NCBI GenBank assembly: GCA_964455545.1
Contig: CAYVWQ010000002.1
Location: forward strand, 138,596-202,595
Origin: an uncultured Thermoleophilaceae bacterium
Lineage (GTDB): Bacteria; Actinomycetota; Thermoleophilia; Solirubrobacterales; JACPNS01
Length of the DNA: 64,000 bases
Reading direction: 5' to 3'
The notes beneath the pieces are model-generated. The model ran no database searches and was not told the DNA's origin. It was given only the letters and a program-made list of their open reading frames with translations. Both the position numbers and the translations under genes were made by a program. Each line of letters starts with the position of its first letter. Positions within the stretch are counted from its first letter, which is position 1. Shown one piece after another: positions 5,242 through 51,818 of this stretch.

Positions 5242-7281
5242 GTGCCGCGCGTGAATAGGCCGGATTTCCCGCGGATCAGGGCGACCTTGCGCTACCGCGC
5301 GAAGGCGATCTATGACTCCTTGCAACGAGCGTGGATTCGACTGCGCTATCGCGGTCCGCGGTACATGATCAAACGCATCGCGCTCGAGGCAGGTCGCCGG
5401 ACCCCGATCGTTCGCGAACGAATCGCCAAGCGCGCTCAGCTCGTGGACGATCCGTCTGCCACGCGCTGGTTTGCCAAGCATGCACGGCCGGTGACCGTTG
5501 TCATCCCAACGTTCGGTGGCGCAGAGATCACCGCGAAATTGGTCGAGAGCATCCGTGCGACGACTCCTGCAGAACTCGTCAGGATTGTCGTCAGCGACGA
5601 TGCCGGTCCGGCTGCGGAGGCCGAGCAGCTGAAACTGATCACCGGCATCGACGAGCTGTTGTTGAACGAGACGAACGCCGGCTTTGCGGCGAACGTCAAT
5701 CGCGGTCTGCGCCTGCGCGATGGGCGCGATGTAGTCGTGCTCAACAACGATGTGGTCGCACACGAGGGATGGCTCGAAGCGCTGCAGTTCGCGGCGCACT
5801 CCGATCCGTCCTACGGCATCACCGGACCGATGCTGCTCTATCCCGACGGTCGCATCCAGTTTGCCGGCACCGTCCGCAATTTCGCCGCCCCGCAATGGTT
5901 CGACCATCGCTACCGGTTCCAAGAGGCCGACTTCGGTCCGGCGAACGTCGAGGCTCCGGCGCTGGCGATAACCGGTGCATGCATGTACATCCGCAGCGAC
6001 GTGATCGAGGCGGTCGGCGAATTCGACGAGGCCTACCCGATGGCGTTCGAGGACGTCGACTACTGCATTCGCGCGTGGAACGCCGGTTTCCAGTCGCGCT
6101 ACGTACCCACCGCGCGGCTCACTCACCACGAGTCGATTACCCGCGGAAAGGAAGTCGGTGAGCGCGAGCAGCGGTCGATGGATCACTTTTGGGAGACCTG
6201 GGGCGACTGGTTCGACCGTCGCGAACCGCGTACGGAAGATGGCAAACTCCGCGTGATCTACGTGACCGAGGACACCGGTGTCGGCGGCGGGCACCGCGAC
6301 ATTTTTGAGCACCTGAACCGGCTTCAGGACGCCGGTCATGAGGTCGCTCTCTACACCCTGCACGAGGAGCCGGGGTGGTTCCCGCTCAAGGCTCCTGTTC
6401 ACACTTTCAAGGACTACGACGAGCTGACTGCGGCGCTCGCCAAAGAAGATGCGATCAAGGTCGCGACCTGGTGGAACACCGCCGAGAAAGTCCTCAGCGC
6501 GAGCTACGCGAAGGGCATCCCGGTCTTCTTCGTGCAGGACATTGAGACCTCGTACTACGACGGCAACCCGTCGGCGCAACAACGCGTGCTCGCGTCGTAC
6601 CGCCCGGAAATGAACACGATGACGATCTCTGACCGGTCGCAGCGCAAGCTGGCCGAGCTCGGGGTCGATGCGGTGCTCATCCCGCCGGGGATCGACCTCG
6701 ACGTTTTCCGGCCGCTAGGGGTCGAGAGGGACAAGAACGTTCTCTTGGCGCTCGGCCGTTCGAATCCGCTGAAGAACCTCCCGTTGACGATCTCAGGCTG
6801 GAAGGCGATGGGCTCTCGGCGTCCGGAGCTTTGGATGTTTGGAGTCGAACCCAGAATCGGTGCCCGCTACGGCGCGAAGTATTTCACCAGCCCGTCCGAC
6901 GAAGAGGTCAACGAGCTCTACAACAAGTGCGGCGTCTTCATTCAGAATTCCACGCACGAAGGCTTCTGCCTACCGGTACTCGAAGCGATGGCGACCGGCG
7001 CGCCCGTGGTGTGTACGGACATGGTCGGAAACCGCGACTTCTGCGTCGACGGGGAAAACTGTGTGATGGTCGACTTCACGCCGGAGTCCGTCGCGGCCGG
7101 TGTGCGGCGAGCGCTCGACGACGAGGCGCTGCGCGAGAAGCTTCGCGTGACCGGGCCCGAAACGGCCGCCCGGTTCAGCTGGGATATCCGCATCGGCGAG
7201 GTCGAGGCGTTCTACGAATCGCTCACCGAGCCCGGACCGATGGCCCGCAACACGGACGACGCCCAGGCCGGCGTTGGTTGA
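5242..7281 (+). CDS. Bifunctional glycosyltransferase, N-terminal GT2 fused to C-terminal GT4/GT1-type domain
   Basis: GT2 half: VTVVIPTFGG..VSDDAGP..VVLNNDV..FEDVDYC. GT-B half: LRVIYVTEDTGVGGGHRDIF..STHEGFCLPVLEAMATGAPVV. The start is uncertain: in-frame GTG at 5242 or 5251, or ATG at 5365. Confidence 0.8.
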   Translation: MPRVNRPDFPRIRATLRYRAKAIYDSLQRAWIRLRYRGPRYMIKRIALEAGRRTPIVRERIAKRAQLVDDPSATRWFAKHARPVTVVIPTFGGAEITAKLVESIRATTPAELVRIVVSDDAGPAAEAEQLKLITGIDELLLNETNAGFAANVNRGLRLRDGRDVVVLNNDVVAHEGWLEALQFAAHSDPSYGITGPMLLYPDGRIQFAGTVRNFAAPQWFDHRYRFQEADFGPANVEAPALAITGACMYIRSDVIEAVGEFDEAYPMAFEDVDYCIRAWNAGFQSRYVPTARLTHHESITRGKEVGEREQRSMDHFWETWGDWFDRREPRTEDGKLRVIYVTEDTGVGGGHRDIFEHLNRLQDAGHEVALYTLHEEPGWFPLKAPVHTFKDYDELTAALAKEDAIKVATWWNTAEKVLSASYAKGIPVFFVQDIETSYYDGNPSAQQRVLASYRPEMNTMTISDRSQRKLAELGVDAVLIPPGIDLDVFRPLGVERDKNVLLALGRSNPLKNLPLTISGWKAMGSRRPELWMFGVEPRIGARYGAKYFTSPSDEEVNELYNKCGVFIQNSTHEGFCLPVLEAMATGAPVVCTDMVGNRDFCVDGENCVMVDFTPESVAAGVRRALDDEALREKLRVTGPETAARFSWDIRIGEVEAFYESLTEPGPMARNTDDAQAGVG

Positions 7282-7300
7282 GGCGGGAGACCGCCGTCCG

Positions 7301-8290
7301 ATGCTCGCCGACTCCACTGAACTACTCAGCTGCCCAGCTTGCTCGAGTGAAGGCAGGTTCGAACTGCGGCAGATCGCCGTCAACGAACGCGAGGTGCGCG
7401 AAGGCGTGCTCACGTGCGGCGAATGCGGTCACGAGGTGCGCGTGCATGACGGCGTGATCGAGCTGATCCATCGTCCGCCGGAGCACGTGGACCGCGAGGC
7501 TGCGGGCCTCGGTCGTTTCGCCGAGCTGATGCGCAGAGACGGCTGGGACCGCGCAAAAGTCCTGCAGCTTCCCTATATCGACGACGGCTACTGGTTCGCT
7601 CAGGCGGCCGCGATGGAGGCGGTGCTTGAGCGCTTCGATTTCAAGCCCGGCGAGCGAATCCTCGACGTTGGTTCCAACACCTGCTGGGCGTCGTCGACGT
7701 TCGGTCGCCTCGGCATGCGGGTTTTCGCCCTGGACATAACCCGCACATTGATGCAGGGCCTCGACACCGCAGAGTGGTGGATGGACGAGCACGACGTTCA
7801 TATCGAACGGTTACTCGGCAGCATGTTCGACATACCGCTAGCCACTGGCTCGATGGACTACGTGTTCTGTTGCGAAGTTCTACACCACAACGACAGCAGC
7901 GAGCTGCCGCGCACGTTCTCGGAGATCGCCCGCGTGCTGCGCCCTGGTGGGACGCTGATCGTCGTCAACGAGACCCTGAAAACACTGCTCGATCGCGTCG
8001 GCAACCACGCCGAGGAGACTGGTGTGGCCGAATACGAGGGCTATGAGCACGCCTTTTGGGCCAGCCAATACCTGAGCGCCGCTCGGGCCGCCGGTTTCGA
8101 GGTCGAGGTGGTGCCGCCGCCATTCCTGCAGTTCTTTCGTGTCGGCGCGCCGGCGCGCCCGGGCTTCAAGGGCTGGGTGAAACATCGGCTGAAGCGCAGC
8201 TCGCTGGTGCGCGCGGCGGCCTTGAAGTGGGTCACCTACTGCTCGCGCGCGACCAACCTCAACTTCGTCGCGACGAGGACAGAGAAATGA
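7301..8290 (+). CDS. Trm112-like zinc-ribbon fused to class I SAM-dependent methyltransferase
   Basis: Zinc ribbon: CPACS..CGECGHEVRVHDGVIELI. Methyltransferase motifs: ILDVGSNTCW, VFCCEVLHH, LRPGGTLIVVNE. ATG 7301 is preceded by GGCGGGAGA. The stop overlaps the wzt start (ATGA). Confidence 0.8.
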   Translation: MLADSTELLSCPACSSEGRFELRQIAVNEREVREGVLTCGECGHEVRVHDGVIELIHRPPEHVDREAAGLGRFAELMRRDGWDRAKVLQLPYIDDGYWFAQAAAMEAVLERFDFKPGERILDVGSNTCWASSTFGRLGMRVFALDITRTLMQGLDTAEWWMDEHDVHIERLLGSMFDIPLATGSMDYVFCCEVLHHNDSSELPRTFSEIARVLRPGGTLIVVNETLKTLLDRVGNHAEETGVAEYEGYEHAFWASQYLSAARAAGFEVEVVPPPFLQFFRVGAPARPGFKGWVKHRLKRSSLVRAAALKWVTYCSRATNLNFVATRTEK

Positions 8291-9525
8291 GCGCGATGTC
8301 GGAGACCGCTGTCGAGCGCATCGTGGCACTTGACATCGAAGAGGTCGAAAAGCGATTTGTCGTGCCCCACGAGCGAATGAGCACGCTGAAGCAGCGAGTG
8401 CTCAACCCGCGGCGCGGCGGTCGCGACATCTTCAACGCGCTCAAAGGAGTGTCACTCGACGTCGAGCGCGGCGAATTCTTCGGCATCGTCGGCCGCAACG
8501 GCAGCGGCAAGAGCACGCTGCTCAAATGCATCGCCGGCATCTACGTCCCAGACTCGGGAAGCATCCGAGTGCGCGGAAAGCTCTCCGCGTTCATCGAGCT
8601 GGGCGTCGGATTCGACATCGAAATGACCGCGCGGGACAACGTGATCCTCAATGCGACGCTGCTCGGCTTGACGCCGGCTGAGGCCGACGCGCGCTTTGAT
8701 GAGATAATCGCCTTCGCTGAGCTTGAGGAGTTCGTCGACCTGAAGCTGAAGAACTACTCGTCGGGCATGCAAGTGCGCTTGGCGTTTGCCGTCGCGGTGC
8801 ATGTCTCGGCTGACGTTTTCCTGATCGACGAAGTGCTTGCCGTCGGCGACGCCGCCTTCCAGCAGAAGTGCCTCGACACGTTCGAGCAAATGCGCGCGAG
8901 CGGTCGGACGATAGTGCTCGTCACGCACGACATGGGCATGGTCGAAAAGCTCTGCGACCGCGCAGCGCTGATCAACGATGGTGAGCTGATCTGCGTCGAC
9001 GAGCCTGCGAAAGTGGCGCGTGAGTACATGAAGCTGAACTTCGAACGCACGAGCGCCAGCTCGCTCGGCGACGAAGGCGACTTCGATCGCTGGGGCGACG
9101 GAACCGCGGAGGTCGAGGACTGTTGGTTCGAGGACGACGCCGGTCAACGGGTCGAACAGTCACCCCAGGGGGACTGGCTCACCGTGTGCGCGCGCATTCG
9201 TTTCGCCGTCGCGATGGAAAAGCCGATCGTCGGAATCGTGATCACGGACGACACCGGAACCCCGGTATTCGCGACCAACACCGACTGGGATCACGTCGTG
9301 CGTCGCAGCTATTCGGCAGGAGAAGAGGTGATGTTCCGCGTGCGTTTTCAGAATCACCTCGAGGGCGGCCAGTACCACGCGTCGCCGGCTGTGGCCCACG
9401 CGAGCGGCCTGCAGATGGCGGACTGGCGCCAGAACGTCGCGAACGTGTTTGTCGCCGCCGAGCGGCGCACCCCGGGCCGGGTCGTGTTGCCGCACGACAC
9501 CACGCTTGAGCGGGTCGCCCAGTGA
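8287..9525 (+). CDS. wzt: Polysaccharide/O-antigen ABC exporter ATP-binding protein with C-terminal extension (Wzt-type)
   Basis: Walker A GRNGSGKST, signature YSSGMQVRL and Walker B FLIDEVLAVGD. A ~150-aa beta-rich tail follows (WGDGTAEVEDCWFEDDAGQRV..IVGIVITDDTGTPVFATN), resembling the Wzt C-terminal glycan-binding domain. Confidence 0.85.
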   Translation: MSAMSETAVERIVALDIEEVEKRFVVPHERMSTLKQRVLNPRRGGRDIFNALKGVSLDVERGEFFGIVGRNGSGKSTLLKCIAGIYVPDSGSIRVRGKLSAFIELGVGFDIEMTARDNVILNATLLGLTPAEADARFDEIIAFAELEEFVDLKLKNYSSGMQVRLAFAVAVHVSADVFLIDEVLAVGDAAFQQKCLDTFEQMRASGRTIVLVTHDMGMVEKLCDRAALINDGELICVDEPAKVAREYMKLNFERTSASSLGDEGDFDRWGDGTAEVEDCWFEDDAGQRVEQSPQGDWLTVCARIRFAVAMEKPIVGIVITDDTGTPVFATNTDWDHVVRRSYSAGEEVMFRVRFQNHLEGGQYHASPAVAHASGLQMADWRQNVANVFVAAERRTPGRVVLPHDTTLERVAQ

Positions 9526-40478: not shown

Positions 40479-40551
40479 GCCGACGTAGCTCAGTTGGTAG
40501 AGCACTTCACTCGTAATGAAGGGGTCCCCGGTTCGAATCCGGGCGTCGGCT
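40479..40551 (+). tRNA. tRNA-Thr (anticodon CGT)
   Basis: Hand-folded cloverleaf: acceptor GCCGACG/CGTCGGC, D arm GCTC-AGTTGGTA-GAGC, anticodon arm CTTCA-CTCGTAA-TGAAG, T arm CCCGG-TTCGAAT-CCGGG. 73 nt. CCA is not encoded. Confidence 0.9.
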
Positions 40552-40579: not shown

Positions 40580-41455
40580 ATGCGACCAACCGAACTCGCA
40601 AGTCAGCTTGGAATCTCACCAAAGTCGTTGCGTGCGTGGTTGCGCGCGACGTTCCCGCGGACATCCGATGAACATGGGTCTGAATGGGTTCTGACGCAGG
40701 AACAGGTGGAGGCTGCCACCGACTACTGGCGACCGCGGGATAGTTCGAAGAGCGCAGCGCTTCGTTCACGGCGACACGGCTGGGTAGAAGATGAGGTCAT
40801 ATTGGCTCTCGAGCTGTATGTCCGCGAAGGCGTTGGAGCGTCTCCCGATTCGGTGAACAGACTCAGCTCGATTCTTCGGGGGCTGCCGATCGAAAAAGAG
40901 CTAGCGAAGGACGAGGCGTTTCGCAGTCCATCGAGCGTGAAGTTCAAGTTGGGAAACCTTGACTCAATCGCCTCAGGCGGCGCCTCAGGGTTTGCAAACG
41001 CAAGCATGCTTGATCGAGAGATTTGGTTTGCCTACGCGGACGAGCGCGAGCAGCTCGAGATAGATGCCATTTCGATTCTCGAGAACATTGAGGAGGCTGG
41101 TGAGGTCGGCCAGTTGGAGCTCGAAGAAGAGCCGCCAATAGAGGGCCGCATCGTCGCCGCCGTGCACAAGAGGAGAGAAAGAGACTCCCGCCTGCGAAGG
41201 CGGAAGATCCAGGCCGCCGAAACACTCGCCTGCGAAGCCTGCGGCTTTGATTTTGAGGACTCTTACGGTGAAAGGGGCGCCGGCTTCGTTGAATGTCACC
41301 ACCTGGTTCCACTCGCGGAACTCGGAGCGAGCGGTCGTCGTACTTCGTTGGACGACCTTGCGTTGCTTTGTGCCAATTGCCATCGAATGATTCATCGAGA
41401 GCGCCCCTGGCTAACCCTGCCTGAGCTCAGGGCGTCGATAAATCGGCGCATCTAG
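40580..41455 (+). CDS. HNH nuclease of the predicted restriction-endonuclease type (COG3183-like)
   Basis: C-terminal HNH/zinc motif CEACGFDFEDSYGERGAGFVECHHLVPLAE..LLCANCHRMIH. The middle region WVEDEVILALELY..FRSPSSVKFKLGNL is typical of this group. Confidence 0.75.
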   Translation: MRPTELASQLGISPKSLRAWLRATFPRTSDEHGSEWVLTQEQVEAATDYWRPRDSSKSAALRSRRHGWVEDEVILALELYVREGVGASPDSVNRLSSILRGLPIEKELAKDEAFRSPSSVKFKLGNLDSIASGGASGFANASMLDREIWFAYADEREQLEIDAISILENIEEAGEVGQLELEEEPPIEGRIVAAVHKRRERDSRLRRRKIQAAETLACEACGFDFEDSYGERGAGFVECHHLVPLAELGASGRRTSLDDLALLCANCHRMIHRERPWLTLPELRASINRRI

Positions 41456-41522
41456 TAGCCGCGACCCGGGACTGCCTAGGTCTCGAGGCAGGTTCGCATT
41501 CAGATAGCTGGAACCAGAACAC

Positions 41523-42521
41523 GTGAACGAGGAACAGTTGGATCCCGCCGACTTTGCCGTTCGGCCGCAGCAAGCGCTCGATGGCGAAATCACGCGCGTA
41601 GTAGAGGCGATCAAGAGTGCGGATCCGGACGGCTCGCGCTTTGCCGAGACGATCCGAGCTACCTACGACCAGATTTACGACGGCCAGCACACCGGTCGCT
41701 ACTCCGTTGAGGAGTTGATGAAGACCGAGAAGACTCACATCGGAACGATTGTCGAGATCAATCTCCAACGTGAATTTGAGTGGGATGACGGAACGCTGTT
41801 CGATTACACCATCGCCGACGCCGACATCGACTGCAAATTCGCACAGAAGTTTGGCTCATGGATGATCCCGCCTGAGCTCTATGACAACAATGGACTAGCG
41901 CTCGTGGTTTGGGCCGACGATGCTGTAGGCAGATGGTCCGTTGGAGTCGTGCGGACTACCGACGACGTGCTCCGGGAAGGCAAGAACCGAGACGGCAAGA
42001 AGTCGCTTCGCGCGGGGTCGCTTGAGACCGTGACCTGGATTTGGCGAGACGCACATCTTCCTGAAAACACGCTCCTTCACCTCGATCCTTTCATTCGAGA
42101 TCGTGTTCTCGCCGCTGAGGGCTCGAAGCAAAACAGCGGTGCGGGCCGTGTTCGCGCGCTATTTCGCCTCGTCCAAGCACGAGTGATAAACCGTGCGACT
42201 GTTGTGACTGTTGCGCGCCAAGATGACCCCATGAAGCGCGCTCGAGAGGTTCGCGAAAAGAAGTGGCTCGGGAGGGAAGGAATCGTTGTTCTGGGTCACT
42301 GGAATGAGCACGCGGACATTGCAAGAGCTCTCGGACTCCCGGTTCCTTCGCGTGGCAGTTTTGTGAGCTCACGTGTGGTCGTCGCCGCACCTGACTGGAG
42401 CGGTCCTTCCGCCCAGATCGGTCAGGATCGATTTCGAGTCGCGACGGAGTCAGATCCTGTGACTCCCGCCCCCAGCGTCCGTTGGCGGCCACCCAGAAAC
42501 GACGACGAGTCCGCTGCTTAG
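41523..42521 (+). CDS. Type II restriction endonuclease, NaeI-like family
   Basis: YDGQHTGRYSVEELMKTEKTHIGTIVEINLQREFEWDDGTLFDYTIADADIDCKF and VTVARQDDPMKR match my recollection of the NaeI family core. A C5-MTase lies convergently adjacent. Needs HMM confirmation. Confidence 0.65.
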   Translation: MNEEQLDPADFAVRPQQALDGEITRVVEAIKSADPDGSRFAETIRATYDQIYDGQHTGRYSVEELMKTEKTHIGTIVEINLQREFEWDDGTLFDYTIADADIDCKFAQKFGSWMIPPELYDNNGLALVVWADDAVGRWSVGVVRTTDDVLREGKNRDGKKSLRAGSLETVTWIWRDAHLPENTLLHLDPFIRDRVLAAEGSKQNSGAGRVRALFRLVQARVINRATVVTVARQDDPMKRAREVREKKWLGREGIVVLGHWNEHADIARALGLPVPSRGSFVSSRVVVAAPDWSGPSAQIGQDRFRVATESDPVTPAPSVRWRPPRNDDESAA

Positions 42522-42579
42522 TGGCGGGCAACAGACGGGTCTGCGAGCGACCTCTGCGCCTTAGCGGCAGATGACGCCC

Positions 42580-43677
42580 TCACGCCGCGAGGGCTGGCAC
42601 GCGGGTGTGCCCTGCTTCGAGATGCGACGCGCGCAGTGCCTGGGAGATGGCGACACCGACCGCGTTCGCCACGGGGGGTGGGAATGCATTCCCGACCTGT
42701 CGATAGCTCGCGGTTTTCTTGCCCGCGAAGTTCCAGGAATCCGGGAACCCCTGAAGCCGGGCAGTCATGCGAACTGTGAGCCGAGGCATCCCTTGAAACT
42801 GCACCGTGGGCGGGAAGTCGGCGAGCCCTCTCCCGTCGACTCCAAGTGATTCCCACTCCGCCCGCGCACGAGTTGGTCCTAGGTCCGGGCCACCGTGCTT
42901 CTTTGATCCTCCAACGAGAGTGGGACCAATCTTGTCGGCTTTCGATTTCCATTCTTCAGCACCGATCCACCCGTCTTCAGCGAGCAGGTCAAACAGGAAC
43001 TCGCCCACCGTTGGGGTGGACTCGGGATTTCCTTCCGGCCACATGAAGTGTTCCCATGCATCGGGGCGAAGCGCGACGAGTATCGCTCGCGGCCGAAGCT
43101 GCGGAACTCCGAAGTCCGCCGCGTGAAGCAATTTCCATTCGGAGACGTAGCCAAGCTCCTCGAGTTCCTCTTGGAGATCGTTGCGGTAGTCGTCGAACTT
43201 GGGCGAGAGCAGGCCTCTAACGTTTTCTAGAAGGACTGCTTCGGGCCGACATTCTCTCGCAAGCCGCAGCGCCTGTGGAAAGAGATCGCGTTCGTCGGCT
43301 CCGCCGAGCTGTTTTCCTGCAAGCGAAAACGGAGGACAAGGAACGCCTCCTGCGAGAAGGTGAATTTTTCCTCGCCACGGAGCCGCGGAAAATGCTCGAA
43401 CGTCGCCGGGTCCGCCACTCGCGTCAGTTACGCCGGGCGCAGGGCCAATCACGTTCCAGTTTGGTCGGTTCAGACGGAGGGTTGCTGCTGCCCAGTGGTC
43501 TATTTCGACTACTGCCTCGTGAGAGAACCCAGCTTCCTCTAGGCCTAGTGCCTGGCCGCCTGCACCGGCACAGATCTCGATCGAAGTCAGCTCTCCAACA
43601 AACGTTTCGGCGTTCGGCAAGCTCTGGGGATCGCGTGTCCACGGGGGATTGTCTGAAATCAAACTCATTTGCTCCAA
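42580..43677 (-). CDS. DNA (cytosine-5)-methyltransferase
   Basis: Motif I EICAGAGGQALGLEEAGF, motif IV GGVPCPPFSLAGK, motif VI LLENVRGL, plus QVGNAFPPPVA. The start is TTG 43677 or ATG 43668. Confidence 0.9.
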   Translation of the reverse strand: MEQMSLISDNPPWTRDPQSLPNAETFVGELTSIEICAGAGGQALGLEEAGFSHEAVVEIDHWAAATLRLNRPNWNVIGPAPGVTDASGGPGDVRAFSAAPWRGKIHLLAGGVPCPPFSLAGKQLGGADERDLFPQALRLARECRPEAVLLENVRGLLSPKFDDYRNDLQEELEELGYVSEWKLLHAADFGVPQLRPRAILVALRPDAWEHFMWPEGNPESTPTVGEFLFDLLAEDGWIGAEEWKSKADKIGPTLVGGSKKHGGPDLGPTRARAEWESLGVDGRGLADFPPTVQFQGMPRLTVRMTARLQGFPDSWNFAGKKTASYRQVGNAFPPPVANAVGVAISQALRASHLEAGHTRVPALAA

Positions 43678-43988
43678 TGGGTTCGTGCCTTTCGGATCGA
43701 CGACTCGCGCCAGCAGGTCTGACGCTGGATCGTTCGCGTCGCCGGTTCATGCACGAACGGATGTTCGATCATGTACCACTCATCGGACAGAATGATGAGG
43801 GGATCCTAGGCAGGAGAATTGACGCCTGAATTGGCGTTTGCCGCTCACACGCGTCCGACGCGCGGCCTGCCCGTCGTGAATGATCACGGCGCCAACTACA
43901 TGCCGCTCTCGCCCCATCGACCCTTCCGTTTGAGTCTGGGAGTTACTGGTTTGTGCCGAGGTAGTGGCGGAGGGCTGGTCTTGGCGGC

Positions 43989-44738
43989 TCAGCCGTACGC
44001 CCCAAGCTCGACCCCATCGGGCATCCGCTCGATTGCACCCGCGATCTCCTCGATCTCTTGGCGACTCAGTTTGGTCTCGAGCGAATAGAGCCAAGCGGAG
44101 AGCGTGTCGCCGGCGACATACGTGACGTTGTCAATGCTCAAGTGGTTTTGAGGGAAATCGGCCCAAAGCACTATCACAGCCTGCACCCATGGATTCGTAG
44201 AAGTCGAGCTCTTCAGCTCGCGATTGATTTGTGCCGCGGTTCGTCGGGCGGCATCGGGTAGGCGCGGTTGCGCGAAGCCGTCCCTCCGGACCACCCCGTC
44301 GACGATCTCGACCATGCCACTCCAGTTCTTGGAGTCGATGGCAAGGACGCCACCCGGACCAACCAAAACATGGTCGACGTTCTTTCGGCCAAGCGCGCGG
44401 TCGTGGACGGTCTTCCATCCTAAGTCGTTGAGTTTCTCGAGCTCAATCGCAGTCGACGCCTCGCCTTCCGCTCCCCGGCGCCAGTTTCCGACTCGCAGCG
44501 GAGGAATGGTGAACGCCACTAACGAGGCAAGGAGTCCTACTCCGGACATGAGTCCGAGCAGGAAGCTCAAGAACGGATTCACGTCAAAGAAGATCATCGC
44601 TCCAACGGCGACGACTGGTAGGAGGAGCAGATAAATGAGGGAGTACCGATTCTCCCACCACCACTCATTCATCTGGCGCCGATACTCCTGCTCACTTGAA
44701 GCGCCTGCCGCCTTCTTATCGAGCTTGCTTGTCCACAT
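43989..44738 (-). CDS. NERD (nuclease-related) domain protein with N-terminal TM helices
   Basis: GAEGEASTAIELEKL..VHDRALGRKNVDHVLVGPGGVLAIDSKNWSG. Start at ATG 44738. Confidence 0.7.
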   Translation of the reverse strand: MWTSKLDKKAAGASSEQEYRRQMNEWWWENRYSLIYLLLLPVVAVGAMIFFDVNPFLSFLLGLMSGVGLLASLVAFTIPPLRVGNWRRGAEGEASTAIELEKLNDLGWKTVHDRALGRKNVDHVLVGPGGVLAIDSKNWSGMVEIVDGVVRRDGFAQPRLPDAARRTAAQINRELKSSTSTNPWVQAVIVLWADFPQNHLSIDNVTYVAGDTLSAWLYSLETKLSRQEIEEIAGAIERMPDGVELGAYG

Positions 44739-44830
44739 GGCTCCACTATCGGCAACTGATGGACTCGTCAGAAAACCACTTCGCCGAACGGCCACCCCTG
44801 GCAATCGCTCATCCAAACCAGGAGACCAGT

Positions 44831-45370
44831 ATGCGAAAGGCCCTACTCGCAGCATTCGCGCTGCTCATGCTCTTCGGCCTCACAGCAGAAAGCTGCGAGA
44901 CCACCACCAACTCCACGCCCGACGCCTCGAGCTCAAGTGACTCGAAGAGTGAGGCAAAGACCGCCGCGAAGGTCGGCGACACGCTGACCCTCCACGACTC
45001 GAACGACAACGAGTACAAGGTCACCCTCACAAAGTTCCTCCGCAACGCCGAAGGCGGCGAGTTCGATGAGCCGGATGCCGGCAACAGGTTCGTCGGCGTC
45101 AAGCTCACGATCAAGAACGTCAGCGAGGCGACGTACTCCGACTCGCCGTCGAACGGATCTGTCCTGATCGACACACGCGACGACCAGTACGACGCGGCGC
45201 TCTTGACTGACGGGAACTGCGAACTCCCTGCCTCGGTGAAGATCGCTCCAGGCGATCAGCGCCGCGTCTGTATTCCGTTCGAAATGCCGAAGAAGCGCAT
45301 GGCCGCGAAGTTCCAGTTCGCGCTCGACTCCGGGTTCTCCGACGAGAACGGCGAGTGGTCGCTGCGATGA
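44831..45370 (+). CDS. DUF4352-like lipoprotein
   Basis: Signal plus lipobox-like MRKALLAAFALLMLFGLTAESC, RBS GGAGA. Beta-sandwich pattern VGDTLTL..YKVTLTKF..FVGVKLTIKNVS. Confidence 0.7.
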   Translation: MRKALLAAFALLMLFGLTAESCETTTNSTPDASSSSDSKSEAKTAAKVGDTLTLHDSNDNEYKVTLTKFLRNAEGGEFDEPDAGNRFVGVKLTIKNVSEATYSDSPSNGSVLIDTRDDQYDAALLTDGNCELPASVKIAPGDQRRVCIPFEMPKKRMAAKFQFALDSGFSDENGEWSLR

Positions 45371-45912
45371 GCTCGCGGCAGATCGAGACCTTGAAGAAGC
45401 AAGTCGGCCTGGCGCTCGTGCGCCAAGGCCGGCTGCTTCTCGACATCGACCAGGCGCTTGCCGAACAGCGTCCGACCGGACCGTCAAGCGAAGACACGCG
45501 CCCGGCGATGACCACCGAACTCACGGTCATCCTGTCCCACCACGCGATCGACCGTTACGGCGAGCGCACCGGCCGTGAGCTGGGCCGCACTCTCCAGGTG
45601 GAGGAGATCCGTCACGTCTGGCCGCACGCCGAAATCACGTCGGTACCTCCGGACTGGCACAAGCCGACGCGCGAGCACCCGGCCGGCACGCTCTACGCCG
45701 AGATCGCCGATCTGCTCATCCCGCTCGTTCCGTACGAGCGCTCATCAAACACCTATGTCGCCACGACGGTCCTGTCGAAGCTCGGCGACCGCGGCGCGAA
45801 ACGCGCAGGCTCGAAACTGCCGCGTCGTGTCCGATCGGGCGCGAAGTTCAAGCGGCGCAAGTGGTCGGACGGCCCCCGGCGCCGGCCGGAAGACTTCGGG
45901 TTCGACGCCTGA
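45367..45912 (+). CDS. Hypothetical protein (weak DUF4258/RelE-fold toxin-like motif, basic C-terminal tail)
   Basis: ATGA overlap with the DUF4352 stop. SHHAIDRYGERTG..VEEIRHV..YVATTVLSK is reminiscent of HA..R..ER toxin families. This is weak evidence. Confidence 0.45.
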   Translation: MSSRQIETLKKQVGLALVRQGRLLLDIDQALAEQRPTGPSSEDTRPAMTTELTVILSHHAIDRYGERTGRELGRTLQVEEIRHVWPHAEITSVPPDWHKPTREHPAGTLYAEIADLLIPLVPYERSSNTYVATTVLSKLGDRGAKRAGSKLPRRVRSGAKFKRRKWSDGPRRRPEDFGFDA

Positions 45913-45915
45913 GCG

Positions 45916-46218
45916 TCAGTCCCAGATCAACGGATCGCCGTCGGGGTCTTGGGTGCGCGTCCCGCCGCAGCGCGGGCAAGGCGCAGACCCATCCTCGAGC
46001 AATTCGATCATCCTCGCCCCTGGATGCTCTGGGCATCGCGGCAAGTTCCGCAGCTTGAACTCGTTGTCAACCTCACGGTCGAAGCCAATGAACTCGTAGT
46101 CGATCTTCCCGCACACGTCGCAGTAGTGCGGCGTCTGACAGCCGCGAAATCCGCATCCGAACGAAACCATCTCCCGAACCCCGCACGAGCCGCAAACAAA
46201 CTCGAAACCGTCACCCAT
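45916..46218 (-). CDS. Small multi-CxxC zinc-ribbon protein
   Basis: Cys motifs: CGSC, CDVC, CPEH, CPRC. Head-to-tail with the upstream small ORF (stop/start abut at 46218/46219). Confidence 0.5.
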   Translation of the reverse strand: MGDGFEFVCGSCGVREMVSFGCGFRGCQTPHYCDVCGKIDYEFIGFDREVDNEFKLRNLPRCPEHPGARMIELLEDGSAPCPRCGGTRTQDPDGDPLIWD

Positions 46219-46503
46219 TCAGCGCACCCGCCCCTGGTAGTCCTGACCCTCATCGTCGTCATAGCCTGCGCTCTCCCGCTCGGAGTAGCTCGAGACAACC
46301 GCGTCATACGTCGCCTCGTCCACGCAACCGATCGTCGGACTCGTGACGACGCAGGACGGGTCGTACGGCTCAGCTGCAGGTTCGGCCGGACCGGGATCGC
46401 TGGTCGCTGCCAGGTAGATGAGGACGCCGGGAAATCCGAGCATGAGGACGATGACCGTCACGGTTGCAGCGACATCTGCTTTGTCCGGAAGTTGAAGTTT
46501 CAC
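46219..46503 (-). CDS. Small single-pass membrane protein (hypothetical)
   Basis: GTG 46503 gives VKLQLPDKADVAATVTVIVLMLGFPGVLIYLAATS, followed by an acidic C-terminus. Low support. Confidence 0.35.
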   Translation of the reverse strand: MKLQLPDKADVAATVTVIVLMLGFPGVLIYLAATSDPGPAEPAAEPYDPSCVVTSPTIGCVDEATYDAVVSSYSERESAGYDDDEGQDYQGRVR

Positions 46504-46538
46504 TTCAACTGGGCCGGTCGGCGTCAGACTGGTCTGAC

Positions 46539-47099
46539 ATGAACCAGCGCGAAGAACTCGACGCCTCCACTCTCGATCGAAAAGTCTGGGACCTGTGCGA
46601 CGGGTACCTCGCACTCGATTCCGCGTTTCGCGCGCTCGATGAGTCGCCCGAAGGTGACTGGCAGCTGTCCGATGAATGGATCACGTTGCCCGGCAAGATC
46701 GAGTACCGCCGCTCGTACTTCCAAGCGCGCGCCAAAGACCCCGACGTCGTTCGCGAGATCCGCCGCGCCTACCTGAGCGGCGCGATCCTCACGGTGGGGG
46801 AGTTGCTCGCCGGCGCCGGCTACCTGGATCGATCGCCGGAGTTCGAGTTCGTCCGTCACGTCCGAAACGCAGTGGCGCACGGCAACGTCTTCAAGCTTGA
46901 GCCTCGGGCGGTCAACGAACTTGCCAAGCACCCCGCCTGCTTGGTCGGTCGCGACGGCACCCGGACCCACAGGGTCAAGGCCGAACTCAACGGGCGCGAA
47001 TGCCTCTTCTCGTTCCTCGGTCCGAACCACGCGCTCGAGGCGATTCAGGCTGCGGCCGCGCGTCTGGAATCGATCGAGCTCGATCACCTGACGCGCTGA
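46539..47099 (+). CDS. Hypothetical protein with RNxxxH (HEPN/Abi-like) motif
   Basis: EFEFVRHVRNAVAHGNVF contains R-x4-H with N after R, as in HEPN RNase families. 186 aa from ATG 46539. Confidence 0.5.
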   Translation: MNQREELDASTLDRKVWDLCDGYLALDSAFRALDESPEGDWQLSDEWITLPGKIEYRRSYFQARAKDPDVVREIRRAYLSGAILTVGELLAGAGYLDRSPEFEFVRHVRNAVAHGNVFKLEPRAVNELAKHPACLVGRDGTRTHRVKAELNGRECLFSFLGPNHALEAIQAAAARLESIELDHLTR

Positions 47100-47204: not shown

Positions 47205-48116
47205 ATGTTCAAGAAATCATTGTTTGCCGTCGCGGTCGCAGTGAGCGCGATCGCGGCGGTTCCCGTCGGCGCCAACGCCGCACCTTGCTATTCATCGACG
47301 CCGACCGGCAACGTCGTCTACGACGCGACATCCGACTCGGACTACGGCCTCGCACCCGAGCTCGCCGCGATGCGCGTGGGGATCGACTCTGCATGCAACG
47401 CGACGTTCTCGTACGACGTGCTCGGCCAGTCGGCTCCGATCCCCGGCGACTTCTACTCGTGGTGGATCGACAGCGACAACAACGACTACACCGGGGCGCC
47501 GACCGGATTCCCGGGCGCCGACTACGCAGTCAGCCTGCTCTCGACCGGCAGTGCCGCGATCTCTCAGTGGAACGGTTCGAGCATGGTCTCGAGCGGTGCG
47601 ATCACGCGCGCCGGCACTTTCGCCGTGGCGACGTCACTGTCGAGCATCAATGCCACGCCGGGAGTGCCGATCTGGGTCGCCGGAGGATCCTCCTGGAAGG
47701 GGAGCTCGGGCACGACCTACTTCGATTTCCTCCCGGATCTCGGATATTCCTGGCTCGGCCTTACTCCGACTTTCTCGACGACCCCACCGGCCGGCAGCGG
47801 CGGAGGCGGGAACAGCAGCGCCCAGTGTGTCGTGCCGCAGGTGCGCGGCTACACGCTTCGCCACGCCAAGTCGCGAATCCGCGCCGCCGGCTGCAAGGTC
47901 GGTGCGGTCAAGAAGCGCGTCGCCGGCCGTTCGCGGATCGGGCTTGCGATCGGCAGCAGCCCCTCGAAGGGCTCTCACCTGAGCGCCGGTGCCAAAGTCA
48001 CCATCTACGTCGGGAAGCGCGCACCGCGTCGCCAACGGAAGTCGCTCAGCGCGAGCGGCTCACCCGATCTGATCGCCGCCCACCTGAACCAGCAGCTCGC
48101 CGCGGCGAGGAAGTAG
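47205..48116 (+). CDS. Secreted protein with C-terminal PASTA-like domain
   Basis: Signal MFKKSLFAVAVAVSAIAAVPVGANA. C-terminus VVPQVRGYTLRHAKSRIRAAGCKVGAV..SPSKGSHLSAGAKVTIYVG. Confidence 0.7.
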   Translation: MFKKSLFAVAVAVSAIAAVPVGANAAPCYSSTPTGNVVYDATSDSDYGLAPELAAMRVGIDSACNATFSYDVLGQSAPIPGDFYSWWIDSDNNDYTGAPTGFPGADYAVSLLSTGSAAISQWNGSSMVSSGAITRAGTFAVATSLSSINATPGVPIWVAGGSSWKGSSGTTYFDFLPDLGYSWLGLTPTFSTTPPAGSGGGGNSSAQCVVPQVRGYTLRHAKSRIRAAGCKVGAVKKRVAGRSRIGLAIGSSPSKGSHLSAGAKVTIYVGKRAPRRQRKSLSASGSPDLIAAHLNQQLAAARK

Positions 48117-48153
48117 GCGCTGACATCCGGGCGCAGACCGAGGATTGTTGCCC

Positions 48154-48876
48154 ATGACCGACCTGACCGACCCCCACATCCGCGACGCCACCGCAGCAGC
48201 TCGCGCGCTGCGCGAGCGACTCGGCGTTCCGATGGTCGGTCCGATCCCGAGAGACATCCTTGCCCTGGTTGAGGATGACCTCGGGATCCCGGTCTGCGTT
48301 CTGGAGATGCCTGACGGGTTGGCGGGCGCCTATCTGAAGGTGCGCGGCCAAGACCTCATCTTTCTTCAGGCGACCGACTTCCCGACGCGTCAGCGGTTCA
48401 CGCTCGCGCACGAGGTCGGCCACCACGTCCTCAATCACAAGGGCCGGGTCGACGCGAGCAAGGACGTCGGCGGCAGCCCGGTCGATCCGAACGAACAGCA
48501 GGCGAACTACTTCGCGAGTGAGTTCCTCGTGCCGGTCGAGGCGATGCGGGACTGGCTCGCGCGAAACAGCGACGGCCAGCTCGACCTGCGTTCGCTCGTG
48601 ATCGCCGCCGACCATTTCCAGGTCAGCCCGCCGGCGATGCTCTACCGATTGAGCAAGGGCGAATTCGGCTTCTCCGAGGACGAGATCCAGGCTCTGTGGA
48701 CCGAGGTCAAGGCGAGACGGCACCTGCCCGTGGTCGAGGAGCTCGGGATCGGAGCTGGCGACGACCAACTGGCAGTGATTGAGGCGAGCAGGAGCTGGCC
48801 GAGGGTGCCCGCGGCGATCGACGCCGCCAAGGCCGCCGAGGTCGCGGCCTTCATCAACTCTCAGCGATTGAAATGA
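48154..48876 (+). CDS. ImmA/IrrE-family zinc metallopeptidase (DUF955-like)
   Basis: HEXXH in FTLAHEVGHHVLNH, followed by EQQANYFASEFLVP. ATG 48154 is preceded by AGGA. Confidence 0.75.
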   Translation: MTDLTDPHIRDATAAARALRERLGVPMVGPIPRDILALVEDDLGIPVCVLEMPDGLAGAYLKVRGQDLIFLQATDFPTRQRFTLAHEVGHHVLNHKGRVDASKDVGGSPVDPNEQQANYFASEFLVPVEAMRDWLARNSDGQLDLRSLVIAADHFQVSPPAMLYRLSKGEFGFSEDEIQALWTEVKARRHLPVVEELGIGAGDDQLAVIEASRSWPRVPAAIDAAKAAEVAAFINSQRLK

Positions 48877-49610
48877 CTTCCGCCGCGACAGCGATCCGCG
48901 CGTCTGGCAGAATGGCCGTCATCGAAATTGAGGATGCGACAGGCGTGCAGATCGAGTCCGTGGGCGGCGGTGAGCCGGCCGCGGATCTCGGCATGCTGCT
49001 CCGTCGCGCCAACCGGTTCCGCAGCCATCGCGGTCCGGAAGCCGCCCGCAGGTTGACCGAGACTTGGCAGGAGATCTGGGCGCTCGAGGCCTACGCGATC
49101 CGCCAGCAGGTGATCAGCAAGGGCTACTCGGTGACCGGCAACGCATGGGTGAACGAGAGCGACGTCGACGACGTGCTCGCCGACCTCATGCTCGACGCCA
49201 CCAAGATGTTCATTGCCTTCCGAGGAATCGAGGTCGGGCAGTTCCGCGCAGCGATGAACAAGCGGATCCACTGGACCGTCATCAACTACATCCGCAAGGA
49301 CCAGTCCAACAAGGCCAAGCCGGTCGACCCTGCGGCGTTCGACCCGAACGGATTCGACGAGACAGACTCCCGTCACGCCGAGATCGCCGGGCTGGCGGCC
49401 AAGGGCGGCGCCGAGGACCGCGCGGATTTCAAGGAGACGCTCTCGGGCATCACTGAGCTCGAGCCGCGGGCGGCCGATGTGGTGACACTCCGACTGTCGG
49501 GGATGTCCGCGAAAGAGGTCGCCGAAAAACTCGATCTCTCTCCCGCCAATGTCGACCAGATCTTCTCGCGCAGCGTCAGGACCATGCGAAAGTTGTTGAC
49601 CGATGACTGA
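48873..49610 (+). CDS. Sigma-70 family (ECF-like) RNA polymerase sigma factor
   Basis: Region 2-like FRAAMNKRIHWTVINYIRKDQ. Region 4 HTH: VVTLRLSGMSAKEVAEKLDLSPANVDQIFSRSVRTMRKLL. ATGA overlap with the peptidase gene. Confidence 0.75.
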   Translation: MTSAATAIRASGRMAVIEIEDATGVQIESVGGGEPAADLGMLLRRANRFRSHRGPEAARRLTETWQEIWALEAYAIRQQVISKGYSVTGNAWVNESDVDDVLADLMLDATKMFIAFRGIEVGQFRAAMNKRIHWTVINYIRKDQSNKAKPVDPAAFDPNGFDETDSRHAEIAGLAAKGGAEDRADFKETLSGITELEPRAADVVTLRLSGMSAKEVAEKLDLSPANVDQIFSRSVRTMRKLLTDD

Positions 49611-50226
49611 TGTGGCAACACTGCTCGGCGAGTTCGTCGACGATTTGAACGCCGGTCGTGGACCCGAGGCGGCGGCGTTCATCGAGAAGGCCGAGAGCGA
49701 AGCCGACCGCAAAGAGCTCGCTCAGGGAATCGAAGCGGTGCTCGCGTTCGCCCCTGACGGTGCCCGCCAAGCGGCCGCTGCGACCAGCCCGATCGACGCG
49801 TCGCAACTCGCAGCGGCGATCGAGAATGCGCTCGAGTCGACCAGCGAGCTCGCCGAGGCAGTGCCTGGCTGGCGCGAAACCTTCGGCGCATCGGTGGCGG
49901 ATTTCGCCCGTCGCGTGCTCACGGCCGGCGGATTGAGCACGACCGACGAGAACGTCGCGGTCGCCACGCAATGGGTCACCGGCATGGAGTCGGGTGCCGT
50001 AATCGCAGAAAGTCTCAGTGACCGGGCGATGCGGGCCGTGTCGACGGTCCTCGGCTCGGGGGGCGAAGAGCTCGACTTCGCGTTCAGGGCCGAGAACGAC
50101 GTCGCCGACGATGAGGTCGCGGCGAAGCTCGGTGGGATCGCTGAAGCACTGAGCGATGCACTGGTCGACGCGTCTGCGGCGGACGAGGACGTCGAAGCCT
50201 GGTTCGCGACCGACGCTCCGGCCTGA
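49603..50226 (+). CDS. Acidic hypothetical protein (possible sigma-associated partner)
   Basis: 8-nt overlap with the sigma gene. Ala/Glu/Asp-rich. No known motif. Confidence 0.5.
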   Translation: MTDVATLLGEFVDDLNAGRGPEAAAFIEKAESEADRKELAQGIEAVLAFAPDGARQAAAATSPIDASQLAAAIENALESTSELAEAVPGWRETFGASVADFARRVLTAGGLSTTDENVAVATQWVTGMESGAVIAESLSDRAMRAVSTVLGSGGEELDFAFRAENDVADDEVAAKLGGIAEALSDALVDASAADEDVEAWFATDAPA

Positions 50227-50282: not shown

Positions 50283-51818
50283 GTGGTGCGCCTCCTTTCC
50301 ATCGCCATCGCGTTAATCGTCTGCCTGTCGGCAATGGCTGCCACCGCCGTCGCCTCACCGATCAAAGTCCAGATCGCAAACAACTCAGCCAAAACCCCCC
50401 AAAACGTCTGGCTGACCCTCCACGGCGCCGCAAGCACCGACGGCCAACTCCCCGCCGACACCCCGGTCCAGCTCAGCTCAATCGCCAACAACTCCTTCAC
50501 GATCGGCGACATCAACGCCGGCCGCCTCTTCGTCTCCTACGACCAGGGCGTCGGCCCGGCCGAGCCGATCACCACGCCGATCCGCAACGACAAGATCGAG
50601 TTCACCAACCCGGGCGTCGTCAACCTCACGTCTGTCGACTACTTCGGGATTCCGATCGACGTGCAGACCCTCAACTCCGGCGGCACGGTGATCGACACGC
50701 TTGCCTATCGCTGCCACACCTCGACGATCCTGCCGAAGCTGCAGGGCATCGCGGGCGTCACGGGGGCGCAGATCAACACCACGGGCGGCAACTTCGCCCG
50801 TTTCCTCTCGCCGCAGATCGACCCGCCGGCCAGCTACCCACTGATGACCGGCTACCTCGCGTCCATGACCGGCAAGACGATCACCGTCGACAGCACCTAC
50901 TACGGCAAGCCGCTCACGACCACCAACTACACCGGCACGTTCGCGGCGGACGGTTCGATCACGCTCACCGGCACGATCACGACGCCCTCCACTTCTTCCA
51001 CCGTCACCGGTCAGCCGCTCGCCATCAGCGGCGCGCAGCTGCTCCAAGGGATCTACACCGGCAACGGCAGCTACACCGTCGGCGGCCAGCCGGCGGCCGT
51101 CTCCGACAACGACGTATACGCCGTGATCTACCGCGACGTCGCGGCCGGCTTCGCGCTCGGCTACTGGGGCGGGAAGTACGGCAACTCCACCTCGAGCTGG
51201 AAGGGCCAGCCGCCGTTCGCCGCCGCCTGGAACACCCCGCCGGCCTTCACCCCCTACTTCAACCAGTACGCGCAGATCATCGGCGAGTACTCCGACTCGT
51301 ACGGCTTCTCGTTCTCGGACGTCGGTCCCGCACCCGTGCAGGCCGGGCTCGACTCCGAGGTGGCGACGATGCTCGTGACGATCGACTCCGACTCGGGACC
51401 GCAGGTTCCGGGCTGCGTCGGTCAGGCGACCCCGCCGACCTCGGCCCCGACTCCGTCCGCACCCGTCGCCAAGAAGAAGCGTGCGAAGGCCGTCGTGCTG
51501 ACCGGTCGCCTGCGGATCGACCGCCGCGGCCGCGCCCGCCTGAAGATCCGTTGCACCGGCGACCCGTGCAAGGGCGAGGTCGTGATGACCGTTCGTCGCC
51601 GTGAGGGCCGCAAGCTCAAGACGATCGTCGTCGGCCGCGCCCGGATCGCGGTCCCTGAACGCCGCACGCGCTTCGTCTTCATGCCACTCACGCGCGCCGG
51701 CCGAACGCTGCTCGACCGCGCAAGACACGGGATGTGGACGAGATCGAGCGTGATCCTCGGCCCGCGGAGCCGGCACTACCGGTCGTCGGTGCGGTCGGTG
51801 AAGTTGTACCGGCGCTGA
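50283..51818 (+). CDS. Secreted GH64/thaumatin-like superfamily protein (beta-1,3-glucanase-like) with basic Cys-pair C-terminal module
   Basis: Signal LLSIAIALIVCLSAMAATAVA. AGRLFVSY, DKIEFTN, VDYFGIPI and YSDSYGFSFSDVGP resemble GH64 patterns. The family call is tentative. Confidence 0.5.
   Translation: MVRLLSIAIALIVCLSAMAATAVASPIKVQIANNSAKTPQNVWLTLHGAASTDGQLPADTPVQLSSIANNSFTIGDINAGRLFVSYDQGVGPAEPITTPIRNDKIEFTNPGVVNLTSVDYFGIPIDVQTLNSGGTVIDTLAYRCHTSTILPKLQGIAGVTGAQINTTGGNFARFLSPQIDPPASYPLMTGYLASMTGKTITVDSTYYGKPLTTTNYTGTFAADGSITLTGTITTPSTSSTVTGQPLAISGAQLLQGIYTGNGSYTVGGQPAAVSDNDVYAVIYRDVAAGFALGYWGGKYGNSTSSWKGQPPFAAAWNTPPAFTPYFNQYAQIIGEYSDSYGFSFSDVGPAPVQAGLDSEVATMLVTIDSDSGPQVPGCVGQATPPTSAPTPSAPVAKKKRAKAVVLTGRLRIDRRGRARLKIRCTGDPCKGEVVMTVRRREGRKLKTIVVGRARIAVPERRTRFVFMPLTRAGRTLLDRARHGMWTRSSVILGPRSRHYRSSVRSVKLYRR

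Follow-up and report, generated by a model that had tools for sequence, protein, structure and literature searches.

Do four tightly packed genes beside a restriction-modification (R-M) cluster form one system, or do they lie together by chance? The question is raised by positions 45367 to 47099 of a 64,000-nucleotide stretch (the window) of contig CAYVWQ010000002.1, from an uncultured Thermoleophilaceae bacterium. An earlier note on this DNA had described the four open reading frames (ORFs), called A to D here, as a candidate abortive-infection or toxin-antitoxin-like module, and all four are present in the sequence. The present analysis favours, with a probability of roughly 0.6, a chance juxtaposition of the four genes in a variable chromosomal region, D encoding a stand-alone protein of the HEPN superfamily. 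The four genes and the conserved block of D are listed below.

45367-45912, plus strand: gene A, 181 aa, conserved hypothetical protein
45916-46218, minus strand: gene B, 100 aa, Cys-rich putative double zinc ribbon
46219-46461, minus strand: gene C, 80 aa by the public gene call; the alternative GTG at 46503 gives 94 aa
46539-47099, plus strand: gene D, 186 aa, HEPN-like, putative metal-independent ribonuclease (RNase)
46836-46892, plus strand: conserved block P100-F118 of D (PEFEFVRHVRNAVAHGNVF), with the putative catalytic R109, N110 and H114 at 46863-46880

Gene D belongs to a large family with a conserved motif

Gene D lies on the plus strand, divergent from B and C, and contains VRHVRNAVAHGN, the element on which the HEPN assignment had been based. 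Six relatives were retrieved by a word-indexed search of 5.8 billion proteins, and the block DRSPEFEFxRHxRNAVAHGN is invariant in the seven-sequence alignment of D with these nearest relatives. When 1.84 billion representatives of clusters at 50% identity were searched with a HMMER profile, 404 members of the family passed E≤1e-3, of which 197 also passed E≤1e-10. Conservation was assessed across 117 aligned members whose identity to D is 20-57%. Ten positions are conserved at 90% or more: P100, E103, H107, R109, N110, H114, G115, N116, F118 and A133. Because the RNxxxH motif is conserved across this alignment, it is a signature of the D family and not a chance string; its conservation in homologues had been named beforehand as a check on the assignment.

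The family was found in Actinomycetota, Alphaproteobacteria, Bacteroidota and soil metagenomes. Its plasmid copies, in Acidisoma and Rhodococcus, are all annotated 'hypothetical protein'. No related sequence was detected when D was compared by tblastn with 50,697 phage records. The family is uncatalogued, being absent from Pfam, NCBIfam and PADLOC.

Evidence for and against HEPN membership of D

HEPN domains are defined by a conserved Rx4-6H motif in which a polar residue (N, D or H) directly follows the Arg; the motif lies at the end of core helix-3 and the start of the next loop, and an upstream acidic residue is often conserved, typically as Ex3[KR] in helix-2 (PMC3710099). D carries a motif of this form, R109-N110-A-V-A-H114. 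In Pfam, weak matches of the 117 family members were obtained to pEK499_p136 (28 members), HEPN_RiboL-PSP (12), Ribonuc_2-5A (5), and HEPN_Swt1, HEPN_MAE_28990 and Abi_2 (2 each). The Pfam families matched by more than one member are exclusively HEPN models, and no non-HEPN family recurs. Similarly, the sole PADLOC models matched by more than one member are the reverse-transcriptase-associated HEPN model RTasHEPN (19/117) and CARF2-CARF_HEPN (14/117); AbiD was matched by a single member. By hhalign, the segment PEF---EFVRHVRNAVAH of D was placed on GPEMNLRELIHKMRNSVAH of the pEK499 'HEPN family nuclease' (P=0.0017, probability 15%, 20 columns). The D profile retrieved noise only from PDB sequences.

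The structure of D was predicted with AlphaFold2 (AF2) from the 117-sequence alignment. The model is mainly helical, with a predicted local distance difference test (pLDDT) score of 94.7 and a predicted template modelling (pTM) score of 0.88, and its long helices span residues 9-35, 68-92, 100-113 and 162-185. It superseded an earlier AF2 model built from seven sequences (pLDDT 69), for which Foldseek was uninformative. According to DSSP, helix 100-113 has R109 and N110 in its final turn and stops just before H114, so that in the model the motif sits where HEPN domains have theirs, at the end of helix-3. Membership of D in its own family, conservation of its motif and the place of that motif in the predicted structure are direct observations.

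Several results weigh against assigning D to HEPN. No HEPN match of any family member reached a curated threshold, the best being E=6.6e-4 (pEK499_p136), and D itself scored E=0.3 against HEPN models in Pfam and 0.015 in PADLOC. Similarity extends over only some 20 residues around the motif, at the low hhalign probability given above. Foldseek found no HEPN structure in PDB or BFVD even from the pLDDT 94.7 model (best E 0.24 and 0.15). The conserved E103 lies in the helix of the motif itself, six residues before R109 (as E-x-x-R-H), and not in helix-2 as in canonical HEPN domains. In addition, many members of the family are located among housekeeping genes. D could accordingly be a helical protein unrelated to HEPN, such as a regulator or ligand binder, in which RNxxxH is a convergent or structural motif.

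We consider this unlikely, since the recurrent weak matches are to six HEPN Pfam families and to PADLOC HEPN models and to nothing else, the positions that scarcely vary carry polar, catalytic-type residues (E, H, R, N, H, N), and the predicted position of the motif at a helix end fits HEPN. Foldseek is, moreover, weak on small helical bundles. Taken together, motif conservation, HEPN-clan matches and predicted motif position bear out the description of D as HEPN-like. Membership of D in a HEPN-type family of putative RNases is probable rather than proven, because all matches fall short of curated thresholds and no solved HEPN structure was retrieved by Foldseek.

Gene D occurs without a conserved partner

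The context of the family was analysed in 88 loci, made up of 80 metagenomic loci, one IMG/VR locus and the loci found earlier. Neighbouring ORFs were called with a simple script, and the three on each side of D were clustered. The 322 neighbour ORFs fell into 275 clusters, none of them common beyond near-identical contigs, and no recurrent family emerged from a Pfam scan of 130 immediate neighbours. Scattered domains were seen among the neighbours (integrases, DDE, insertion sequence (IS) elements, resolvase, TIR_2, DUF4238, AAA_15/AAA_21 and GIY-YIG), and such mobile or defence-type genes were interspersed with ordinary metabolic ones. On the Rhodococcus and Acidisoma plasmids, relatives of D adjoin IS66, a recombinase and an AbiE pair. 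The neighbours showed no enrichment for membrane proteins, zinc ribbons or small Cys-rich proteins. Since no neighbour recurs in the D-family loci, D is best described as a solo accessory gene without a conserved partner.

The three closest homologues of D (47-58% identity) each follow a YccF (DUF307) gene with a 4-bp overlap. The pairs lie at 7600-8492 of locus L001, 6351-7243 of L002 and 400-1367 of L004, the D homologue starting 4 bp before the YccF stop; the overlap suggests translational coupling. YccF, an inner-membrane protein gene, is not a recurrent neighbour in the wider D family. These overlaps, together with the hydrophobic gene C of the window, had prompted the idea of a membrane-protein partner for D. 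Membrane proteins were encoded at 16 of 71 positions -1 against 14 of 47 positions -2, which is no enrichment next to D, and the idea was dropped.

The sole virus-tagged contig with a D-family gene is the IMG/VR contig UViG_3300031236_000933 (L096, 3499-6886). There the gene is preceded by genes for a Rap1a-like immunity protein and an adhesin-E-like protein and followed by one for a 608-aa AAA_15/AAA_21 ATPase. Ten ORFs of this contig were scanned, and none was recognised as a phage structural gene.

Comparison of D with known HEPN proteins

The most frequent weak match of the D family is the pEK499_p136-like HEPN family (PF18736), represented by the 'HEPN family nuclease' of E. coli plasmid pEK499 (WP_000528932.1). 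The two have the extended motif P-E...E-(L/F)-(I/V)-x-x-(M/V)-R-N-x-V-A-H in common. At 166 aa the pEK499 nuclease is close in size to D, the relative position of the motif is similar, and each is a small protein that stands alone in the accessory genome. They differ in that no D-family member attains the Pfam gathering score of 26.6 bits, and in two features of the D family, its own G-N-x-F extension following the His and the conserved H107.

AbiD/AbiF (Abi_2), AbiU2 and AbiJ resemble D in being stand-alone proteins with an R-N-x-x-A-H-type motif that are encoded in variable or mobile regions (PMC3710099). In contrast to these proteins, the D family has no significant profile match and no known phage-resistance phenotype, and many of its loci lie outside recognisable defence islands. 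In HEPN-MNT toxin-antitoxin systems of type II/VII, which pair a DUF86 HEPN protein with a minimal nucleotidyltransferase (MNT), the toxin is likewise a small HEPN RNase with an Rx4H site across the dimer. However, neither a nucleotidyltransferase nor any other conserved partner accompanies D-family genes, and no DUF86 match was obtained.

The closest functional precedent is gp57r of mycobacteriophage Butters, a small, cytoplasmic, stand-alone HEPN-like prophage defence protein that is necessary and sufficient for phage defence; its sole database signal is a weak pEK499_p136/Abi-like match at the Rx4H motif (bioRxiv 10.1101/2023.01.03.522681). D resembles it in its actinobacterial setting and in having HEPN similarity at the level of the motif. 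The motif itself is RDRCAH in gp57r and RNAVAH in D, and gp57r is a prophage protein whereas D is chromosomal with host-like codon composition. Given this precedent, HEPN similarity limited to a motif can mark a real solo defence gene. D may, by analogy with gp57r, be a latent RNase of the abortive-infection type.

If it works as characterised HEPN enzymes do, D, as a stand-alone protein of that superfamily, would be active as a dimer. The two R-N-x3-H motifs, at the ends of the helix-3 pair and with E103, H107 and N116 nearby, would then make up a composite metal-independent RNase site. Cleavage at such a site would leave 2',3'-cyclic phosphate ends. The likely role of D would be that of a toxin-like or abortive-infection-type RNase, inactive until triggered, as for other solo HEPN proteins. 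RNase activity, dimerisation and a part in defence are putative attributes of D, inferred from these likenesses.

Genes B and C have no detectable relatives

The four Cys pairs reported for B were recovered (C9xxC12, C22x4C27, C33xxC36 and C81xxC84), together with an additional C62. Its matches to zinc ribbons are below threshold: Zn_Ribbon_TF at E=0.006 (16.5 bits, cutoff 29 bits) and the PaaD ribbon at E=0.0097. Apart from itself, B has no homologue among the 5.8 billion proteins. As had been described, C abuts B and has one hydrophobic segment; the start at 46503 is, on the other hand, uncertain, the public annotation calling the GTG at 46461. The strongly hydrophobic segment of C is N-terminal (Kyte-Doolittle 19-residue maximum mean 2.36-2.42) and is followed by an acidic tail. 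It is a putative anchor or signal-like segment, and C would on this basis be a small membrane or secreted protein. C forms a singleton cluster and has no family match in Pfam, PADLOC, NCBIfam or phrog. By tblastn, both B and C are absent from the approximately 98 loci fetched. The two genes are strain-specific, with no detectable relatives. The junction between them has no gap, the stop codon of C ending at 46219 and the ATG of B starting at 46218, and they are probably co-translated in the order C then B.

As singletons without homologues, in GC-rich DNA where long spurious ORFs arise and many overlapping ORFs are seen, B or C or both could be chance ORFs and not real genes; the ambiguous start of C points the same way. 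This is rather unlikely in view of their codon pattern, which is of coding type: GC content at the third codon position (GC3) is 0.76-0.78, above that at the first and second positions, and an overlapping plus-strand ORF (45949-46542) has a GC3 of just 0.64. The regular spacing of the four Cys pairs in B, the clean hydrophobic segment of C and the exact abutment of C stop and B start also argue for real genes. Across A to D, GC3 is 0.76-0.84 in the annotated frames and exceeds that of the overlapping alternative frames; we therefore regard all four genes as coding.

The 77-bp divergent region between C and D holds two perfect palindromes.

46490-46510: perfect 9-3-9 palindrome AGTTGAAGT-ttc-ACTTCAACT, candidate operator
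46523-46538: perfect 7-2-7 palindrome GTCAGAC-tg-GTCTGAC, abutting the ATG of D

The first is unique in the window, where 0.02 matches would be expected by chance. No obvious Shine-Dalgarno sequence precedes D. The palindromes may be operators or a hairpin.

Gene A and its occasional proximity to D

Three features attributed to A were readily confirmed. It contains LSHHAIDRYGERTG (the SHHAIDRYGERTG block), it has a basic tail with 15 Lys/Arg in the last 42 residues, and its start is coupled to the stop of the preceding DUF4352 gene, the ATG overlapping that stop by 4 bp (45367 versus 45370). Seven relatives of A were found in 5.8 billion proteins. Invariant in the family are S-x-H-A-x-x-R-x-G-E-R-T-G-R, N-T-x-V-A-T-T-V-L and, in the tail, K-x-K-R-R-K. 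The tail is probably nucleic-acid-binding, and A is a separate conserved protein restricted to a small lineage.

The pattern H-A-x-x-R-x-x-E-R, which we took to resemble DUF4258 or BECR proteins, found no support in profiles, and A as a DUF4258 or BECR toxin was rejected after searches of Pfam, PADLOC, NCBIfam and PDB. At E≤5 in Pfam, the seven family members matched neither DUF4258 nor a toxin model of any kind, A itself matched nothing in PADLOC or NCBIfam at E≤1, and the family profile gave nothing meaningful against PDB at E≤10. The toxin-like, DUF4258 character for which the earlier note had proposed a profile search thus failed in that search. All seven members weakly match phrog_8252 (best 4.9e-4) and phrog_6182, small phage families of unknown function. 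Nothing was found by tblastn of A against plasmids and phages, or with the A profile in JGI metagenome contigs and IMG/VR.

In related bacteria, A is met again in regions that are variable or integrative. In loci L008 and L009 its homologue lies beside an integrase and an excisionase, with Eco57I, T5orf172 and GmrSD genes. In L010 its neighbours are a Pif1 helicase and a CARDB protein, and the contig also encodes a NERD homologue (46% identity); in L011 it follows a nuclease-helicase. The closest relative, 81% identical, is in L014, where the overlap with DUF4352 is kept and the DUF4352 protein is also about 81% identical; the 77 bp downstream of this homologue do not encode B. Other neighbours of A homologues include sigma factor and ADP-ribosylglycohydrolase genes. 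The window encodes a Pif1-family helicase together with a CARDB (plus PLAT) protein at 55360-58987, about 9 kb downstream of A, and in L010 the corresponding pair directly follows the A homologue (6817-8708). This arrangement suggests that the window and L010 hold a common but rearranged accessory region of related bacteria.

One locus, L012, speaks for a link between A and D and so against their chance juxtaposition. Its order is sigma factor, 207-aa homologue, Rv1352-like protein, A and D homologue. A is upstream of D on the same strand both there and in the window (51% identity for A, 39% for D). The gap between them in L012 is 179 bp, and the two genes have stayed close although the surrounding gene order differs. 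On these grounds A and D could work in this lineage as a pair of toxin-antitoxin or abortive-infection type, with A as regulator, antitoxin or sensor, D as the HEPN RNase effector, and B and C as inserted passengers. Such a pair is improbable. A is present in only 2 of the 88 D-family loci; the closest homologues of D, those following YccF, lack A in the 8 kb before and the 2 kb after them; and D is missing from the other A loci examined, both long (L008/L009, L010) and on short contigs (L011, L014, L015). Furthermore, the adjacency may be inherited synteny, because L012 and the window have further genes in common, namely sigma-factor and 207-aa homologues and an M78-like fragment. It is equally doubtful that the D family is a new, widespread, single-gene class of HEPN RNases for defence or abortive infection and has at the same time recruited A as a dedicated partner in this lineage, making a new two-component system.

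Composition and genes of the surrounding region

The genes on either side of A to D are as follows.

40479-40551: tRNA-Thr(CGT)
40580-41455, plus strand: HNH endonuclease
41523-42521, plus strand: NaeI-type restriction enzyme
42580-43677, minus strand: C5 DNA methyltransferase (name taken from the public gene call)
43989-44855, minus strand: NERD protein
44831-45370, plus strand: DUF4352 lipoprotein-like gene (179 aa by the public gene call; mechanical ORF from 44696)
47205-48116, plus strand: PASTA-domain protein
48145-48876, plus strand: ImmA/IrrE M78 peptidase
48873-49610, plus strand: sigma-70/extracytoplasmic function (ECF)-like factor

The window has a GC content of about 65%. From GC content by codon position, GC3 is 0.61-0.67 for the HNH, NaeI, C5-methyltransferase and NERD genes and about 0.85-0.90 (~0.87) for host or flanking genes. 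The DUF4352 gene, A and D have values of 0.81-0.84 (0.78-0.91 when the genes after D are included), and B and the 80-aa C are intermediate at 0.76-0.78. The low-GC island in which all four genes had been placed therefore exists at 40.58-44.86 kb, where the R-M, HNH and NERD genes lie, and does not extend to A-D, whose GC3 is near that of the host. The block of HNH, NaeI, methyltransferase and NERD genes (40580-44855) begins directly after tRNA-Thr and is probably a recent, compositionally distinct insertion. A search for region boundaries turned up neither an integrase at 40-64 kb nor a repeated tRNA-Thr 3' end, and it gave no meaningful direct repeats. Consensus scans revealed no sigma-70-type promoter, and terminator-like sites were no commoner than in shuffled sequence. 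A genome collection search returned only one distant relative, in Algoriphagus.

The DUF4352 gene matches Pfam DUF4352 (E=3.6e-12) and phrog_806 (E=1e-17); it is a neighbour, outside any system. Downstream of D, the genes for the M78 peptidase, the sigma-70/ECF-like factor and a 207-aa protein of unknown function (48145-50226) are joined by overlaps of 4 and 8 bp, and the peptidase also matches the PADLOC models capP (1e-22) and RmrA. At 33-1577 of L012, homologues of the sigma factor (42% identity) and the 207-aa protein (40%) follow each other in the same order as in the window, preceded at the contig end by a short M78-like fragment (54 aligned residues). The three genes could be a protease / sigma / anti-sigma regulatory module. 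A 511-aa secreted-looking protein with a strongly basic C-terminal region is encoded at 50283-51818; its match to GH64 beta-1,3-glucanase is below threshold (E=1.9e-5, 24.5 bits against a 27-bit cutoff).

The proposed four-gene system

That all four genes constitute one novel defence or toxin-antitoxin module is suggested by their tight packing (A overlaps the DUF4352 gene, C adjoins B without a gap, and the palindromes lie between the divergent C/B and D) and by the nearby R-M and NERD genes, but it is very improbable: co-occurrence in other genomes failed, as B and C have no homologues anywhere searched, B is missing downstream of the 81%-identical A, D has no recurrent neighbour in its 88 loci and an A homologue stands by a D homologue in L012 only, and the R-M and NERD genes differ in GC3 from the four genes. 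PADLOC gave no system-level match and named no defence system in the four genes, in agreement with the remark of the earlier note that no named system could be recognised. The four-gene module is rejected because the genes do not travel together in other genomes.

Implications

Tight packing beside R-M genes was insufficient here to define a system. B and C, two of the four genes, are without detectable relatives and carry no comparative signal. Only D has a likely function, and its family occurs alone as a rule. Solo HEPN proteins are already known as a kind; what is new is a credible family of HEPN-like proteins that stand alone. As soon as a phenotype has been demonstrated, a profile from the 117-member alignment could join defence-finder libraries. 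Should D prove to be an active RNase, its family would enlarge an already long list of solo HEPN effectors. About 400 clusters now labelled 'hypothetical protein', the Rhodococcus and Acidisoma plasmid copies included, would in that case gain an annotation.

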